Origin: Candidatus Omnitrophota bacterium
GTDB taxonomy: Bacteria; Omnitrophota; Gorgyraeia; Zapsychrales; Fredricksoniimonadaceae
DNA length: 64,000 nucleotides
Direction: 5' to 3'
Assembly: GCA_016201795.1 (NCBI GenBank)
Contig: JACQCF010000027.1
Coordinates: 113,161-177,160, forward strand
Shown here: piece after piece, positions 7,371-56,143 of the stretch
How positions within the stretch are numbered: the first letter of the stretch is position 1
Layout: every line of letters begins with the position of its first letter
Translations under genes and position numbers: made by a program
The notes under the pieces: generated by a model
What the model was told of the DNA's origin: nothing
The model's database searches: none
Seen by the model: the letters and a program-made list of their open reading frames with translations, nothing else

Positions 7371-8708
7371 ATGAGCAGGGCAGAGACAAAACAAGAAAAA
7401 GAAGAAAAGAATGACAACGGCAATGGTGATTATAAACCCGCCAATCCATCGGGCAAGACCGTCAATATCGAAGATCTCAAAGAGATGAAAATGGCGGAGC
7501 TAACCAAATTGGCCCATGACATGGATGTACAAGGTACCAGCGGTCTTAAAAAACAGGAATTGATTTTTAAAATCCTCCAGGCCCAGGCGGAAAAAGAAGG
7601 GCTGATGTTTGGTGAAGGGACTCTGGAAATCCTCTCCGAAGGTTTTGGGTTTTTACGTTCAGCCAAATACAATTACCTACCGTGTCCTGATGATATTTAT
7701 ATCTCTCCTTCTCAAATACGCCGTTTCGATTTAAAAACGGGGGACACCGTTTCCGGTCAAATACGTCCTCCCAAAGAAGGCGAAAAATATTTCGCGCTTC
7801 TAAAAGTTGAGGCGGTCAATTTTGAAAATCCCGAAAAATGTAAAGATAAAATCTTTTTTGACAACCTCACACCGCTTTATCCTAAAGAGCGTCTGAATTT
7901 GGAGACCACCCAGCAGGAGGTGTCTACGCGGATTATTAATCTGCTGACACCCATCGGCAAGGGCCAACGCGCTTTGATTGTGGCGCCTCCCTATAGCGGT
8001 AAAACCGTTTTGCTGCAAAAAGTGGCCAATGCCATTGTGCAGAACCATCCGGAAGTTATTCTCATTGTACTTTTGATTGATGAGCGTCCGGAAGAAGTTA
8101 CCGATATGCAAAGAAGCGTCAAGGGCGAAGTGATCGCTTCCACCTTTGATGAGCCTGCGGAACGCCACGTACAGATTGCCGAAGTCGTGATCGAAAAAGC
8201 CAAACGTTTGGTGGAGCATAAACGCGATGTGGTGATCCTATTGGATTCGATTACTCGTTTAGCGCGTGCTTATAATACCGTTGTACCGCATTCGGGCAAA
8301 ATTCTCTCCGGTGGTGTGGATTCCAATGCCCTGCATAAACCTAAGCGCTTTTTTGGAGCGGCGCGCAACATTGAGGAAGGCGGTTCTTTAACAATTATCG
8401 CAACCTCATTGGTTGATACCGGCAGCCGCATGGATGAAGTTATTTTCGAAGAGTTTAAAGGTACCGGCAACATGGAATTGCAGCTGGACCGTAACCTCTT
8501 CCAGCGTCGTATTTATCCGGCCATTGACATCAAACGTTCCAATACCCGCCATGAAGAATTATTGGTTCCTGAAGGAGATCTTCAGCGCGCCTGGCTTTTG
8601 CGTAAGGCCTTTAATGACCTTAACGCAGCAGAGGCTATGGAGCTTTTGATCGATAAAATTTCCAAATTTAAGACCAACTCAGATTTCCTGCAGAATATGA
8701 ATAAGTAA
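7371..8708 (+). CDS. rho: Transcription termination factor Rho
   Basis: 445 aa; N-terminal RNA-binding domain ([12 protein letters not shown]), Walker A ([17 protein letters not shown]), Rho Q/R loops; short low-complexity N-terminal extension. Confidence 0.9.
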
Positions 8709-8736
8709 GGTAAGGATTAGAGGTAACAAAGCTTAC

Positions 8737-8765: not shown

Positions 8766-8824
8766 ATCGCCCTTTGATTAATAAGGTAATCCTTCGCTCC
8801 CGCAATGAAGGAGGTTAAAAGTTC

Positions 8825-9028
8825 ATGAAAGCAGAGATTCATCCACCCTACGAAGAAACCACCATCACCTGCGCTTGCGGGAATGTGATTCATACGCGGG
8901 CCACTAAAAAAAATATTCGTGTGGAAATCTGTTCCCAGTGTCATCCTTTTTTTACAGGATCCAAGAAGCTCGTGGATACGGCCGGCCGTATTGAACGTTT
9001 TAATAAACGGTATGCTAAAGGCAAATGA
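8825..9028 (+). CDS. rpmE: 50S ribosomal protein L31 (Zn-ribbon type A)
   Basis: 67 aa [25 protein letters not shown]; strong GAAGGAGG SD. Confidence 0.9.
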
Positions 9029-10082: not shown

Positions 10083-10109
10083 ACGGCGGCCGGTTAATAG
10101 CAGATGGTT

Positions 10110-10155
10110 AATGGTAAATGGTTGAAGAGTTTTTTACTATTAACCATTGACCATT
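10110..10155. repeat. Imperfect 14-bp inverted repeat (AATGGTAAATGGTT / AACCATTGACCATT) between prfA and prmC
   Basis: Arms at 10110-10123 and 10142-10155 (13/14 complementary) with an 18-nt T-rich loop; flanked by reiterated GGTTAAT and ACTATT half-sites. Confidence 0.4.
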
Positions 10156-10171
10156 CACTATTGACTAAACC

Positions 10172-11011
10172 ATGACCGAAGATGAATTAATCCTGACTTC
10201 TATTCTTCAATGCCCCCACAGCGATCTTTATCTTCGAAAGCCCTCCTTAACAGCTCAACAGCAAAAGCAGTTTGAATCTTACAAAGTCCGTCGTGAAAAT
10301 GGCGAGCCTTTGCAGTACCTTCTAGGCTGTTGTGAATTTTATGGGTTGAAATTTAAAGTTGATCAATGTGTGCTGATTCCGCGACCGGAGACAGAAGTGT
10401 TGGTAGAGACAGCTATACAGCGGGTGACCAAGGCAGGAACAGGACCCTGCGTACTTGATTTAGGTACAGGTTCCGGCAATATCGCCATAGCCTTGGCTAA
10501 ACATCTTGCCGGGGTACGCATAACGGCGATGGATATTTCCCAAGAAGCTCTGGATGTGGCCCGTGACAATGCGGTAAGACATGGGGTTGATGGGCGTATT
10601 GAGTTTATTCAGATGGATATGCTTGTGTCATTGCGAACCGAAGGTGAAGCAATCTTTTTAAGAGATTACTTCGTCACAAAAGGCGTTCCTCGCCATGATA
10701 CCGGTTTTGATCTGATTATTTCCAACCCACCATATATTCCAACAGAGCAAATGAAAACTTTGCCTGCCGATGTTCAGAAAGAACCGAGACTAGCTTTAGA
10801 AGCAGGAGAAGACGGTTTAAAGTTTCATAAATATATTATAAAATACACTCCGTTCTTGCTAAGAGCTGGTGGTTATCTTATGATGGAGTTTGGCGACGGT
10901 CAGGGCCAGGCTGTCAAAGAGTTAATCTTACAACAGCAAGTGTTTTCAAACATTCAAATCCTCCAAGACTTAGCCGGTAAAGATCGCATCATTTGTGCAC
11001 AAAATTTTTAA
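10172..11011 (+). CDS. prmC: Release factor glutamine N5-methyltransferase
   Basis: 279 aa; SAM-binding LDLGTGSGNIA and catalytic NPPYIP motif; classic prfA-prmC linkage. Confidence 0.8.
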   Translation: MTEDELILTSILQCPHSDLYLRKPSLTAQQQKQFESYKVRRENGEPLQYLLGCCEFYGLKFKVDQCVLIPRPETEVLVETAIQRVTKAGTGPCVLDLGTGSGNIAIALAKHLAGVRITAMDISQEALDVARDNAVRHGVDGRIEFIQMDMLVSLRTEGEAIFLRDYFVTKGVPRHDTGFDLIISNPPYIPTEQMKTLPADVQKEPRLALEAGEDGLKFHKYIIKYTPFLLRAGGYLMMEFGDGQGQAVKELILQQQVFSNIQILQDLAGKDRIICAQNF

Positions 11012-14732: not shown

Positions 14733-14749
14733 GTGTCATTGCGAAGGAG
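14733..14749 (+). repeat. Solitary copy of 17-mer GTGTCATTGCGAAGGAG (half of the 17280-17375 palindrome) spanning the trpF Shine-Dalgarno
   Basis: Exact match to the left arm of the menG-menF palindrome; its AAGGAG serves as the trpF SD, 8 nt before ATG 14758. Confidence 0.6.
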
Positions 14750-16560: not shown

Positions 16561-17271
16561 ATGTCTGTGAGTATTTCCAAAACCGAATCCTGGAAAATGT
16601 TTGACCAAATCGCCAAACGGTATGATTTCTTAAACCGCCTTTTGTCGTGGGGGCAAGATACGGCCTGGCGCCGGGAAATGAGACAGCATTTGCCCTGCAA
16701 AGAAAATTTAGATCTTTTGGATATCGCCACCGGCACAGGAGATGTGGTTTTAGCGCTGGTGAGAGATAACCCTCGTGTTCATATGGCCTACGGGGTGGAT
16801 TTAGCCGAAGGGATGCTTGAAATTGCCCAAAGGAAAATCAAAAACGAAGAGCTGCATTCTAAAGTTATGCTTCAAAAAGCTGATGCCCAGGCCCTGCCGT
16901 TTTTGGAAGGGACTTTTGATGCGGTGACGATCGCTTTTGGTATCCGCAATATTCCGGATTTGCGTCTGGCTCTTTTAGAAATGTACCGGGTGTTAAAAAA
17001 AGGCGGGAGAGTGGTGATCCTGGAATTTTCTTTGCCCGAGAATCCTCTGTTAAGAGCCGGGCACTGGGTTTATTTAAACTCTATTGTGCCTTTGGTGGGA
17101 CTTTTATTTTCGGGTCATAGCAGCGCGCATCGCTATTTGGCTCAAACGGTTGAATCTTTTCCTTATGGGACACGTTTTTGTAAAATTTTAAGACAGATGG
17201 GATTTATGAACATCCACGCCAAGCCTTTGATGGGCGGGGTCGCAACGGTTTATTGGGCGGATAAAGAATAA
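16561..17271 (+). CDS. ubiE: Demethylmenaquinone / ubiquinone C-methyltransferase
   Basis: MFDQIAKRYDFLN..LS.G.D..WR N-terminal signature of UbiE/MenG; SAM motif LDIATGTGD. Start at the MSVSI ATG inside the track ORF. Confidence 0.85.
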   Translation: MSVSISKTESWKMFDQIAKRYDFLNRLLSWGQDTAWRREMRQHLPCKENLDLLDIATGTGDVVLALVRDNPRVHMAYGVDLAEGMLEIAQRKIKNEELHSKVMLQKADAQALPFLEGTFDAVTIAFGIRNIPDLRLALLEMYRVLKKGGRVVILEFSLPENPLLRAGHWVYLNSIVPLVGLLFSGHSSAHRYLAQTVESFPYGTRFCKILRQMGFMNIHAKPLMGGVATVYWADKE

Positions 17272-17279
17272 GATTACAC

Positions 17280-17375
17280 GTGTCATTGCGAAGGAGCGAA
17301 GCGACTGAAGCAATCTCTTAAAGGGTAAAAGATTGCCACGTCGTCGCTAAAATGCGCTCCTCCTCGCAATGACAC
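17280..17375. repeat. ~96-nt imperfect palindromic element (REP/MITE-like or structured RNA) between ubiE and menF
   Basis: Left arm GTGTCATTGCGAAGGAGCGAAGCGACTGAAGCAATCT pairs with right arm AGATTGCCACGTCGTCGCTAAAATGCGCTCCTCCTCGCAATGACAC. Helices of 12, 7, 6 and 7 bp are separated by small internal loops; the 17-mer recurs at 14733. Confidence 0.6.
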
Positions 17376-25694: not shown

Positions 25695-28400
25695 ATGCCT
25701 TCATTTGATCAAAATTCCGTCCGAAAAATTTTAAACGTCGGTTCCGCCAAGTACACCATTTATTCCTTACCCCAATATACCAAAACCGCAGGCGTGGATT
25801 TATCCAAGCTACCGTTTTCCATTCGTGTGTTGTTAGAAAGCGCGCTTCGTAGCTACGATAATTATCAAGTCACCCTGAAGGACATTGAAAAAATTGCCGG
25901 ATGGAAACCCAATGAACACAAGGAAGAAATTGCTTTTAAACCAGGCCGGGTCATTTTGCAGGATTTTACCGGCGTACCGTGCGTGGTGGATCTGGCGGCC
26001 ATGCGCGATGCCATGAAACGTTTAGGGGGCGATCTTAAAAAAATTAATCCTCAGGTGCAGTGCGATTTGGTTATTGATCACTCCGTGCAGGTGGATGCTT
26101 TTGGCACCGACAAGGCCCTGGCTCAAAACGTCCGATTGGAATTTGAACGCAACCGAGAGCGTTATGAATTCCTCAAATGGGGCCAAAGCGCTTTGCAGAA
26201 TTTTCGTGTGGTGCCGCCGGCTACCGGCATCGTCCATCAGGTCAATCTCGAATATTTGGCCAAAGGCGTTTTAAAAAAGAAAATTGGTCAAGAAATAGTC
26301 GCCTATCCGGATAGTGTGGTGGGAACAGACTCGCACACGACCATGATTAACGGTCTTGGTATTGTTGGCTGGGGGGTAGGCGGCATCGAAGCTGAGTCTG
26401 TCATGCTGGGGGAACCCATTTACATGCTTTTACCGGAGGTTGTCGGTTTTCGTCTGAAAGGTCGTTTACAGGAAGGCGTCACGGCCACGGATCTGGTTTT
26501 GACCGTCACTCAAATTTTACGCCAAAAAGGAGTGGTGGAAAAATTTGTGGAATTCTTCGGGGAAGGATTGAAACATTTGTCCCTGCCGGATCGCGCCACC
26601 ATTGCCAACATGGCTCCGGAATATGGAGCTACCATTGGTTTATTTCCGGTGGATGAAGAGGCTCTGCATTATTTAAAACTTTCCGGACGTACGTCTGCTG
26701 AGGTGGCTTTGGTAGAGAAGTATTATCAAGACCAGGGGATGTTTTATACCACCCAAACGCCGCCGTGCGTTTATTCGGATGTGGTGGAACTGGATTTATC
26801 GACGGTGGAGTCGTCTCTGGCCGGGCCTAAACGGCCGCAGGATCGGGTGGCACTCAAAGATTTGAAGACCACTTTTTATCAGACTTTAACTATGGATATC
26901 AAATCCCGCGGTTATGGTTTGAGCCAGGCAGATTTAGGCCGCACCGCCGTTGTACATAACGGCACCAGAGAAAGTATTGGCCATGGGGTGGTAGTGATTG
27001 CGGCCATTACCAGTTGTACCAACACTTCAAACCCGTCGGTGCTCATGGGGGCCGGTCTTGTAGCGAAAAAAGCGGTAGAGAAGGGCTTGAGTCCGCCTAG
27101 TTTTGTTAAAACATCCTTTGCTCCTGGCTCACAGGTGGTGGAGGAGTATCTCAAATCCGCCGGGCTTATGAAATATTTACAAAAGTTAGGGTTTAATATC
27201 GTCGGATACGGCTGTACCACGTGTATTGGTAATTCCGGTCCTTTACCCGAACACGTGGCCAAAGCGGTGACCGAGGGGAATTTGGTAGCGACGGCGGTGT
27301 TATCGGGAAACCGTAATTTTGAAGGCCGTATCAATCCTCTGACTAAAGCCAGCTTTTTAGCTTCTCCGCCGTTGGTGGTGGCTTATGCTCTGGCAGGACG
27401 AGTGGACATCAATTTGATTAAGGAACCCCTTGGCCATGATCAAAAGGGCCATCCGGTGTATTTGAAAGACATTTGGCCCACCCAGGAAGAAATTAACAAA
27501 CTATCAGGTAAATTTGTCAAGGCTTCCATTTTCCGTCAACGTTATAAAAATGTGAACAAGGGCAATAAAAACTGGAATGCCATCAAAGAAACCGGGTCGG
27601 ATTTATTTGATTGGGATCGGCAAAGCACATATGTCCAAGAGCCGCCTTATTTTTTAGATATGAAATTAAAGGTGGATCCGATTCAATCCATTGGCAGGGC
27701 GCGTTGTTTGGTAATGGTGGGTGATTCGATTACTACCGATCATATTTCTCCGGCAGGCGCCATTGCCAAGGACAGCCCGGCTGGAAAATACCTCATGGAG
27801 CAGGGTATTGCACCTAAAGATTTCAATAGTTATGGCGCTCGACGGGGTAATGACCGTGTGATGACCCGAGGGACTTTTGCCAATATCCGTTTGCGTAATC
27901 TCATTGCCCCCGGCACGGAAGGTCCGTGGACCACCTATTGGCCAACGAAGGAAAAAATGTTTATTTATGACGCTTCTTTAAAATATAAAGCGGATCATAC
28001 GCCGCTGATTGTTTTAGCAGGTAAAGAATATGGTGCCGGTTCCAGCCGCGATTGGGCCGCCAAAGGCGCAACGCTTCTAGGAGTTAAAGCGGTCATTGCG
28101 GAGAGTTTTGAACGTATCCATCGCAGCAATTTGGTCGGGATGGGCGTCTTGCCGTGCCAGTTTAAACCAGGGGAGAATGCCGCCGCGCTTGGTTTAAAAG
28201 GCGATGAGGTTTTTGATTTCGTGGATTTGAATGATGGTTTAAAGCCGCGGCAAGAATTGACGGTGACAGCCGCATCCGCCGATGGCAGCAAAAAACAATT
28301 TAAAGTTTTAGCCCGGGTGGATACACCGGTGGATATTGATTATCTTCGTAACGGTGGTATTTTGCAGATGGTGTTGCGGAAGTTCACCAAAGCATTATGA
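25695..28400 (+). CDS. acnA: Aconitate hydratase A
   Basis: 901 aa; Fe-S ligand regions ([17 protein letters not shown]) and swivel domain; AcnA/IRP length. Confidence 0.9.
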
Positions 28401-53840: not shown

Positions 53841-54458
53841 ATGCAACCGTTTAAAACACACACAGGTATTGCAGCGTCGCTGGAACGCGTCAACGTGGAC
53901 ACCGATGCCATTGTGCCTAAACAATTTTTAAGAAAAATTGAAAAGACCGGTTTCGGTAAACATTTGTTCCACGAATGGCGTTATCTCGACTATGAAGGGA
54001 CCAAAGAAAACCCGGATTTTGTTTTAAACCAAGAACCCTACCGTAAGGCCACGGTATTGTTAACCCGTGATAATTTTGGTTGCGGCTCCAGTCGTGAACA
54101 CGCGCCGTGGGCGTTGGCGGATTTTGGGTTTAAAGTCATTATTGCGCCCAGCTTTGCGGATATTTTCTACAATAACTGTGTTAAAAATGGTATCTTGCTG
54201 GCGCAACTGAAATCCGGTGAGGTTGATGAACTATTCCAATACGCCGCAAAAAACAGAGGCGCAACCATCACCGCGGATTTACCATCGCAAAGGGTGACGG
54301 CAGGCGGCAAGAAATATGTATTTCCCATCGATGCATTCAACAAGGAATGTTTATTAAAAGGTTTGGACAGTATAGGCTGGACCATGCAGTTTAACGATAC
54401 AATTGTGGAGTATGAACAAAAAATTCAATCCAAACACCCGTGGTTAATAAGGAAATAA
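53841..54458 (+). CDS. leuD: 3-isopropylmalate dehydratase small subunit
   Basis: Start 2 nt after the leuC stop; LeuD length and motifs ([16 protein letters not shown]). Confidence 0.85.
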
Positions 54459-54460
54459 TT

Positions 54461-56143
54461 ATGTCAGATATACGCAAATATTCTTCCATTGTTACCGATG
54501 GTGATGACCGCGCGCCTGCAAGATCGATGTTGCGCGCCGTCGGATTTAAAGATGAAGACTTTAGCAAGCCGCAAATCGGTATTGCCTCCACCTGGGCCAT
54601 GGTGACGCCTTGCAACATGCACATCGACCAGTTGGCTAAAAAAGCCGTGGAGGGAGTGGACGGCTTTGGCGGCAAGGCTGTCATTTTTAATACCATTACG
54701 GTCTCGGATGGGATTTCCATGGGTTCCGAGGGGATGAAGTATTCACTGGTCTCTCGCGAGGTGATTGCGGATTCCATTGAAACGGTGATGGGTTGTGAAG
54801 GATTTGACGGGTTGGTGGCTATTGGTGGATGTGATAAGAATATGCCGGGTAGTATTATCGCCATGGCGCGCTTAAATCGCCCATCGGTATTTGTATATGG
54901 CGGCACGATCTTGCCCGGCTGTTACCATAATCAAAATGTGGATATTGTTTCGGTTTTTGAAGCGGTGGGCAAACACGCGGCTCAAAAGATTTCTGATCAG
55001 GAATTAAAAGAAGTGGAAAGCTGCGCGATTCCGGGTCCCGGTTCCTGCGGAGGAATGTATACCGCCAACACCATGGCCAGCGCCATTGAAGCATTGGGCA
55101 TGAGTTTACCGAATAGCTCCATGCAAATTGCCATTTCCAAAGAAAAGGAAACGGACTGCGTCAATGCCGGCAAGGCGGTGTTAAATTTGTTGAAACTCAA
55201 TATCAAACCGCTCGACATCCTGACCAAGAAGGCGTTTGAAAATGCGATTACGGTGGTCATAGCCTTAGGTGGATCTACCAATGCGGTGTTGCATTTATTA
55301 GCTATTGCGTATACGGCCGGTGTTAAGCTTTTTATTGATGATTTTACGCGCGTTGGCAAAAAAGTGCCGGTACTAGCTGATCTTAAACCCAGCGGCCGTT
55401 TTGTCACGGCTGAACTGGCAGCCATCGGCGGCCTGACCCCGCTGATGAAAATGCTGCTGGATAGGGGATTATTGCACGGTGATTGTTTGACTGTCACCGG
55501 CAAAACTGTCCGCGAAAATTTATCTGAAGTTAAACCGTATCCAGCGGGTCAAGAAATCATCCGTTTTTTTAACAAGCCGATTAAAAAAGAAGGTCATATT
55601 ATTATTCTTTATGGCAATTTGGCCCCCACGGGGGCGGTAGCCAAGATCACTGGCAAAGAGGGATTAAGTTTTACAGGCAAAGCCCGGGTGTTCGATTCGG
55701 AAGAGACAGCCTTAAAGAAAATTTTAGACGGAACAGTCAAAAAAGGTGATGTGGTGGTTATCCGCTATGAAGGCCCCCGTGGGGGCCCTGGTATGCGTGA
55801 GATGTTATCACCCACCTCCGCTATTACGGGCAAAGGCTTAAGCAAAGACGTGGCTTTGATTACCGACGGACGTTTCTCCGGCGGCAGCCATGGATTTGTG
55901 GTTGGGCATATCACCCCCGAAGCCTATAACGGCGGGCCGCTGGCTATTGTCAAAAATGGCGACATCATCACCATCGATGCCGTCAAACATGAAATCAATT
56001 TGAATTTAAGCGCTGCCGAAATAAAAAAACGCCTCAAAGCTTGGAAACAACCAAAACCAAGATATACCCGCGGTGTTTTAGCAAAATATGCTAAACTTGT
56101 TACTAGTGCCTCGCAAGGAGCGGTCACAGATAAGGATATATAA
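54461..56143 (+). CDS. ilvD: Dihydroxy-acid dehydratase
   Basis: N-term [37 protein letters not shown] motifs. Confidence 0.9.

Follow-up and report, generated by a model that had tools for sequence, protein, structure and literature searches.

A 96-nt palindrome lying between ubiE and menF, in the 64-kb stretch of Omnitrophota DNA analysed here (the window), is probably a non-autonomous hairpin repeat, a reading to which we assign a probability of roughly 70%. The palindrome, which we call copy A, would be the gene-less miniature of an Ssn-type nuclease unit, recognised as single-stranded DNA (ssDNA) by a nuclease encoded elsewhere and spread or maintained by way of that enzyme. Copy A is neither a local regulator nor a new regulatory device; it is ordinary in kind, and both its phylum and its repeat type are absent from the accessible text of PMC3733652 and PMC11893778.

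Copy A and other family sites in the window

Copy A (GTGTCATTGCGAAGGAGCGAAGCGACTGAAGCAATCTCTTAAAGGGTAAAAGATTGCCACGTCGTCGCTAAAATGCGCTCCTCCTCGCAATGACAC) is predicted to form a long interrupted hairpin on either strand, with an outer stem of 12 bp, a 2-nt bulge, a stem of 7 bp and then stems of ~6–8 and 7 bp. Its RNA MFE is −47.1 kcal/mol on the forward and −53.5 kcal/mol on the reverse strand (z = −7.4 and −8.9), a stability reached by 0 of 200 shuffled sequences, which bears out the original prediction of a ~96-nt four-segment hairpin between ubiE and menF; folded as ssDNA, the two strands give z = −8.3 and −9.8. The element begins 8 nt downstream of the ubiE-like stop codon (17269–17271), and its 3′ end lies 6 nt from the first ATG (17382) and 12 nt from the ATG that aligns with the menF start of a syntenic relative (17388). 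No T run follows the stem, which gives way to AAGAAAATG, and a terminator scan made no call at copy A. Rfam returned one tRNA only for the window, and a relaxed scan of copy A yielded chance matches (E > 3).

Both arms carry the TGTC head, and both match an arm profile derived from 308 arms of the family found in sequences outside the window (E = 6e-6 for 17281–17316 and 5.5e-5 for 17374–17330 on the reverse strand). Since the variable segment of the right arm is the longer one, copy A is a heterodimer. The 17-mer GTGTCATTGCGAAGGAG with which it starts occurs exactly at 14733–14749 and 17280–17296 and with 3 mismatches at 17359–17375 on the reverse strand; these three matches compare with 0.14 expected in the window, so that the exact recurrence at 14733–14749, claimed beforehand, was confirmed by pattern search. 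The first 38–39 nt of copy A are identical at loci from Anaerolineaceae (L236), Anaerolinea (L299) and Methylomirabilis (L315). Over the whole 64 kb, the arm profile finds two dimers and one fragment.

Table 1. Family sites in the window and the corresponding junctions in the syntenic relative.
Feature	Position in window	Strand	Location or state in window	State in relative	Basis
Copy A, full gene-less dimer of the GTCATTGCGAG...CTCGCAATGAC repeat family	17280..17375		ubiE–menF spacer		folds; both arms match arm profile
Copy A, left arm: head (T)GTCAT, box TTGCGA, variable segment AGGAGCGAAGCGACT, box GAAGCAATC	17280..17316	+			
Copy A, right arm: longer variable segment	17330..17375	−			fold; arm profile
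Copy B, decayed in-frame insert of 26 codons (VSLRTEGEAIFLRDYFVTKGVPRHDT)	10625..10702	+	in prmC, directly before FDLIISNPPY		sequence; translation; arm profile
Terminal 17-nt left-arm fragment	14733..14749	+	in 29-nt insertion between trpC and trpF		exact 17-mer
ubiE–menF junction			110 nt to first ATG, 116 nt to aligned menF ATG	2 nt	
trpC–trpF junction			29 extra nt including the 17-mer	TAA-CAT-ATG	
prmC linker			with copy B	shorter, without element (L171)	
rho–rpmE leader			hairpin 8791–8814	similar length, own hairpin	

The relative used for comparison is an Omnitrophota genome, represented by an ENA contig (L171) and by GCA_021783915.1 (L172), in which the gene order from folD to menF is the same as in the window. 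Its PrmC is ~65% identical to that of the window, and exact insertion boundaries are thus unreadable from the comparison. The relative holds empty sites at ubiE–menF, at trpC–trpF and within prmC; compared with it, the window sites are insertions, by which the family has reshaped three junctions of a conserved gene cluster in the source genome. Copy A itself splits a gene pair that is tightly joined in the relative. In a folded transcript, the closed stem would leave ubiE and menF only ~20 nt apart, which may be why the insertion was tolerated.

Copy B, the third family copy in the window, lies inside prmC and had been overlooked in the original prediction. The 9-mer TCATTGCGA recurs at 10628, leading to GTGTCATTGCGAACCGAAGGTGAAGCAATCTTTTTAAGAGATTACTTCGTCACAAAAGGCGTTCCTCGCCATGATAC within the 279-aa PrmC ORF, and the left arm (10626–10655) matches the arm profile with E = 5e-5. 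This old copy adds 26 residues to a surface linker of PrmC. Among 30 aligned Omnitrophota-like PrmC proteins, many run from ‘DM’ to ‘FDLIISNPPY’ with nothing inserted; others have family inserts of differing sequence, starting with VSLR... and ending with ...RNDT, at the codon where copy B sits. The prmC DNA of one of these orthologues (L173, 925–1055) contains a complete element nested in the remnants of an older one, still in frame; this insert begins after the same codon as copy B, with which it has a central GAAGCAATCTTTTTAAGAGATTGCTTCG in common. The inserts at this one codon may stem from a single old insertion with turnover or from repeated insertion. Other Omnitrophota PrmC inserts, seen as peptides only, resemble other tagged-repeat families (alignment columns ~125–165 and 225–290): HSRESGNP and SFPNV..GNP, which mark a second hot spot downstream of the AIK helix, suggest the ATTCCCGC type, and ILSAAKDL...SPQNDS suggests the ATTCTGAG type.

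The fragment between trpC and trpF matches the arm profile at 14734–14746 with E = 0.3, over the first 13 profile positions only. Its AAGGAG at 14744–14749 ends 8 nt upstream of the trpF ATG (14758), which aligns with the start codon in L171, and by this placement the trpF Shine–Dalgarno (SD) sequence is likely an exapted remnant of a repeat arm. The proposal that AAGGAG serves as the trpF ribosome-binding site therefore agrees with its position, but what it describes is an exapted fragment and no general feature of the family. Folding of the copies, suggested beforehand as a check, is strong for copy A, but the outer stem of copy B is lost (ssDNA z = −1.5) and no hairpin forms at 14733–14749 in ssDNA folding.

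The hairpin before rpmE, put forward as a relative of copy A, is not a family member. It scores at background level against the arm profile (E = 2.2), its fold is no better than that of shuffled sequences (z = −1.35), and the rpmE leader of L171 has its own, different hairpin before the SD; since that leader is of similar length, the rpmE hairpin is not an insertion. The small hairpin in the window leader (8785–8826) pairs with part of the SD, and L171 has a CTCCCTTAGGGAG hairpin at 8700–8730 instead; the leader hairpin may be a conserved L31 leader structure unrelated to the repeat family.

Some further sites in the window were noted along the way. An A+T-rich palindrome at 10093–10158, unrelated to the repeat family and single-copy in the window, lies in the 89-nt prfA–prmC spacer (ssDNA MFE −17.2 kcal/mol, z = −4.9); because prfA and prmC overlap in L171, it too looks like an insertion. 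Within a 901-aa ORF (25695–28400), the weak arm-like match GTCATTGCGGAG...GCAGCAATT at 28092–28130 (E = 0.48) could be due to chance or be what remains of a very old arm. A perfect 15-nt inverted repeat, GGCCCCCACGGGGGC at 55621–55635 and GCCCCCGTGGGGGCC at 55773–55787 in the ORF 54440–56143, is most likely a coding coincidence; its arms translate to LAPTGAV and EGPRGGPGM, which we take to be akin to dihydroxy-acid dehydratase motifs.

Architecture and distribution of the repeat family

The family follows the plan Y-GTCATTGCGAG-x-GAAGCAATC...GATTGCYNC-x-CTCGCAATGAC-R, in which GAAGCAATC(C/T) is followed by a variable stem-loop, GATTGC(TTC/CAC/CGC), a variable segment and CTCGCAATGAC-R. Each arm consists of the head Y-GTCAT, the box TTGCGAG, a variable segment and the box GAAGCAATC, and two such arms stand inverted with a short loop between them. 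Every arm contains GTC-AT-TGC...GCA-AT-C, so that the stem starts with complementary A-T; within an arm only ATTGC and GCAAT pair (5 bp), enclosing GAG, a variable segment of 5–24 nt and GAA. Arms frequently end in GCAATCCAG and also commonly in GCAATCTC, the form found in the window.

Scanning viral contigs for the perfect 10-nt ends GTCATTGCGA and TCGCAATGAC placed 50–80 nt apart gave 144 elements with conserved boxes and variable inserts on at least 120 contigs. C or T precedes the head in 135 of 143 copies, and G or A follows the tail in 139. None of these 143 copies shows a target-site duplication, another footprint of transposition or shared flanks beyond positions −2 and +2, and some flanks extend the palindrome. 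Variable segments are most often 7 nt (GCGAAGC) or 13 nt (GGAGCGAAGCGAC) long, and the segments of the two arms are mutually non-complementary in 106 of 130 dimers, implying that most dimers are heterodimers with a bulged stem. Folded whole as ssDNA, 69 of 130 elements are plain hairpins and the rest have one or two side hairpins; a general model of a four-way junction with two side hairpins was dropped, as three hairpin loops are present in 16 of 130 only. What looked like widely spaced solo arms (L109, L077) proved to be separate dimers around ordinary genes. At one locus (L202, ~1183–1260), just upstream of a gene start, we observed a mixed-family dimer with GTCATTGCGAG...GCAATCT on the left and AGATTTCTCGCTCCGCTCGAAATGAC on the right.

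The family ranges over viral contigs, alphaproteobacterial megaplasmids and MAGs labelled as at least 12 phyla, with hundreds of copies sampled. A consensus query located copies in replicons of Novosphingobium (at least 40 places in plasmid pSA1), Methylosinus and Methylobacterium, and one Brocadiaceae MAG has copies on at least nine contigs. The exact 17-mer was found in at least 115 stretches among species-representative genomes, of which at least 73 belong to the family by a strict automated rule and ~95 by reading the sequences, while 17 are clearly unrelated. Among the hosts of the family are five Omnitrophota MAGs, Brocadiaceae, Chloroflexota, Nitrospirota, KSB1, Elusimicrobia and CPR groups, as well as Methylomirabilota, Verrucomicrobiota, Bacteroidota, Firmicutes and Proteobacteria. 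Unrelated matches in Bacillaceae (L225, L242, L246, L257, L280, L303, L314) share one coding context, ...VIAKEFGVSKSTVHKDL..., which resembles SpoIIID, a coincidence that serves as a warning for counts based on the 17-mer. A text search of the literature for the 10-mer ends returned primer coincidences only.

The suggestion of a REP/MITE-like repeat was accordingly right in kind, as hundreds of sampled copies and the empty site in the relative attest, but propagation through an SD is not supported. GGAG, present in 124 of 308 arms of a sample that was itself enriched for GGAG, is one of several variants of the paired segment; CTCC is its pairing partner in full copies, where it stands 60 nt or more away from the 3′ end, and only the truncated fragment at trpF is suitably placed.

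Pairing with a clade of GIY-YIG nucleases

In line with the published account, tagged hairpins flank the Ssn homologues sampled from viral contigs, and most of these hairpins are of the ATTCCCGC type. At one locus (L161), a GTCATTGCGAG...GAAGCAATCT arm on one side and AGATTGCCGCG on the other enclose the nuclease gene, and three complete family dimers surround it; genome loci picked by the 17-mer contain six further GIY-YIG genes (from Chloroflexota, Methylomirabilis, Draconibacterium and a Clostridiaceae MAG). The GIY-YIG genes of these element-selected loci are flanked by family arms in seven of seven cases, and all encode PF01541 proteins. The seven proteins share REKQIK[AGS]GSRxKKIxLI, where aligned homologues flanked by NTS-type repeats have REKQLKKWNRxWK. 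We refer to them as the AGSR clade (‘KAGSR’); its proteins are ~95 aa long and share 39–44% identity with a homologue on a viral contig that has NTS-type flanks.

We then sampled the AGSR clade in metagenomes by protein alone, which gave 63 loci with enough flanking sequence, and scored GTCATTGCGA or TCGCAATGAC with at most one mismatch within 200 nt of the gene. Family ends were present on both sides at 50 of the 63 loci, on one side at 10 and on neither side at 3; other repeat types were seen at these loci three times. Control clades had family ends on both sides at 0 of 39 loci and on one side at 1 of 39, with the ATTCCCGC type on both sides at 16 of 39. The gene was placed between an open left and a closing right arm at 22 of 54 AGSR-clade loci and between complete dimers at 11 of 54. 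The family is hence specifically paired with one Ssn-like clade, in whose full-length units the gene stands between or beside the same arms. Clade members with an N-terminal extension start with family peptides, for example MSLRGAQRRSNP...ARNDT. A protein collection holds at least 8000 members (E ≤ 1e-15 for 7999 of the 8000 candidates scored), named ones including Roseiflexus castenholzii, Desulfomonile, Hormoscilla and Aerophobetes; no NCBIfam model was found for these proteins.

Searches in the other direction returned little. The 64-kb window has no GIY-YIG ORF, no GIY-YIG gene was present in the five Omnitrophota loci examined, and no member labelled Omnitrophota was among the named top matches to the clade. 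A GIY-YIG regular expression found nothing over the first 122 loci, where phmmer gave one unrelated case, and locus searches starting from a single protein led to the query's own contig or to one locus only. The DNA pattern ‘left arm, 315–345 nt, GATTGC’, tried as a finder of nuclease units, was rejected, with one real unit among 39 viral matches.

Other nucleases of this kind lie beside other repeats. Those of N. aromaticivorans and of a Sphingobium plasmid have flanking CGTC repeats of other families, the N. aromaticivorans locus carrying the different repeat CGTCGCCCCGTGCTTGACACGGGGC, which at a guess is CGTC-2 of Di Nocera et al. At the loci L026 (10560–11000) and L169 (320–740), Ssn-like genes are flanked by other CGTC-tagged hairpins (CGTCAGCCCGGGCTTGACCCGGGC and CGTCGCCCCGTGCTTGACACGGGGC), the gene of L026 being apparently frame-shifted.

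Since the gene often lies between two arms, the 96-nt copy A looks like a gene-less miniature of such a unit. Full-length relatives carry the ~95-aa Ssn-type nuclease with its REKQIK[AGS]GSRxKK motif between or beside the arms; the AGSR-clade enzyme, made elsewhere in the source genome, would recognise the arms of copy A as ssDNA, and this interaction would bring about the spread or maintenance of gene-less copies. By analogy with Neisseria SsnA, we infer that the enzyme acts on family arms; its action would lead to copying of the repeats, and the source genome would be expected to encode a member of the clade.

Known repeat systems and competing explanations

Classical MITEs such as the Neisseria Correia elements are short, gene-less derivatives of longer units with terminal inverted repeats; the window family differs in having no target-site duplication and, as its parent unit, a nuclease instead of a DDE transposase. 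Palindromic elements of Rickettsia were reportedly described by Ogata et al. in 2000 and 2002. As in those elements, a palindromic repeat sits in frame in a housekeeping protein gene with the frame kept (copy B in prmC), but phylum and sequence are different. In the accessible text of PMC3733652, only RPE-4 and RPE-6 are of the CGTC type.

That study (Di Nocera, De Gregorio and Rocco 2013, BMC Genomics 14:522), as far as its accessible text goes, divides REPs into GTAG- and CGTC-tagged superfamilies. Members of the latter have an unpaired CGTC/TGTC (or CCTC) head, a stem starting with AT, plain and 8–9 bp long, with a 4–5-nt loop, and a tail near CCA. They occur mostly as inverted dimers, often heterodimers, in many dispersed copies per genome and in several phyla, intragenic copies adding 20–30 residues; among them are Neisseria dRS3 and Rickettsia RPE-4/-6, and no known transposase or linked RAYT is reported there. 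The window family resembles this superfamily in its CGTC/TGTC head followed by AT, its inverted dimers and its intragenic copies, and possibly in its ATCC(A) tail; by head and inverted-dimer layout, and perhaps by tail, it appears to belong with the CGTC/TGTC-tagged REPs. Its arms, however, are without the simple 8–9-bp stem of the four published families, and its unit ATTGCGAG...GAAGCAAT may be distinct from CGTC-1 to CGTC-4; its hosts, Omnitrophota and many candidate phyla, are absent from the accessible text.

In Neisseria, the partner of the NTS repeat (CGTCATTCCCGCG...GGGAATCC) is SsnA, a ~100-aa GIY-YIG nuclease that cuts ssDNA only, and not RNA, a few nt 5′ of the CGTC head (Nat Commun 2025, 16:2388; PMC11893778). 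According to that study, ssnA is flanked by repeats in an IS-like layout and has homologues with related repeats in many bacteria. The window family shares with it the protein family and a single-domain GIY-YIG gene set between inverted tagged hairpins whose head is CGTCAT, an arrangement present for the family as a whole (50/63 against 0/39) but not within the window. It differs in belonging with a separate clade (KAGSR versus KKWNR), in its mostly gene-less dimers and in lying outside the published SRM motif: HGTCWYN(0-2)YYVSBRHN(0-5)WNVSBRGN(0-2)RNCYNB matched 0 of 159 family elements and no arm in the window, while the NTS control matched.

These comparisons bear on what else copy A could be. 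It might be a strict REPIN, that is, a REP doublet mobilised by a RAYT, an IS200/IS605-like Y1 transposase. REPINs (Bertels and Rainey 2011) share the layout of two inverted REP-like units forming a ~100-nt hairpin, are likewise non-autonomous and are matched with a low-copy, flanked enzyme gene. They bear a GTAG tag, however, depend on an HUH Y1 transposase and are mostly vertically inherited, whereas the head here is Y-GTCATT, the gene recurring beside or between the arms encodes a GIY-YIG nuclease, near-identical arms cross phyla, and CGTC repeats have no linked RAYT in the accessible text of PMC3733652, all of which makes a REPIN very improbable. An RNA element would be closer to the original prediction: copy A could control translation, or stabilise or terminate the ubiE–menF transcript, as part of an SD-sequestering class. 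Its transcript hairpin is strong, the genes on either side of it run in the same direction, with the aligned menF ATG 12 nt beyond its end, and the accessible text of PMC3733652 argues for transcription of many REPs and a possible function as RNA. Against this stand the missing T tract and terminator call, the empty site in the relative with the genes 2 nt apart, the ssDNA rather than RNA specificity of Neisseria SsnA (PMC11893778) and the rpmE hairpin, the supposed second example, which is outside the family. Copies of the same family occur, moreover, in frame in coding sequence such as prmC and in phage-like contigs, and a translational-control hairpin class, as once suggested, is not supported; we regard a role as RNA as quite unlikely.

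A further explanation accepts the nuclease but makes the arms recognition sites that the host keeps so that Ssn can police incoming ssDNA, as proposed for Neisseria NTS, the copies being immobile themselves and arising by recombination or gene conversion. Limiting transformation is indeed the only role demonstrated for an Ssn–repeat pair, in Neisseria, and the same study shows Ssn-driven transposition for no family (PMC11893778); the lack of target-site duplications in 143 copies and the near-identity of arms across phyla, which fits protein recognition, would also agree with it. Host-kept sites sit poorly, though, with insertions at new sites relative to the syntenic genome, one of them inside an essential gene, with the nested insertion at L173, with a gene-between-arms layout resembling an insertion sequence and with the frequency of copies in viral contigs, and on balance we think this explanation unlikely. 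A non-autonomous hairpin repeat, dependent on a nuclease encoded elsewhere, is the reading that we prefer for copy A.

For annotation, repeats of this type should be masked, since they are a source of spurious ORFs, odd peptide inserts (VSLRG..., ...ARNDT) and false ‘regulatory hairpins’. Reported for Neisseria in 2025, the association of repeat and nuclease now also covers a second repeat type, paired with a separate clade of nucleases in many phyla, and the recurrence of gene-between-arms alongside gene-less layouts lends support to the idea that these nucleases may propagate their own repeats. We tentatively propose, as a possibility rather than an expectation, that GTCATTGCGAG-type dimers and the AGSR-clade gene form a transposable system in which a GIY-YIG single-strand nuclease, not a transposase, copies hairpin DNA, crossing phyla partly via phages and inserting in frame into essential genes such as prmC. 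If true, this would offer a tractable nuclease–repeat pair outside the published SRM motif, with cultured hosts such as Roseiflexus castenholzii.
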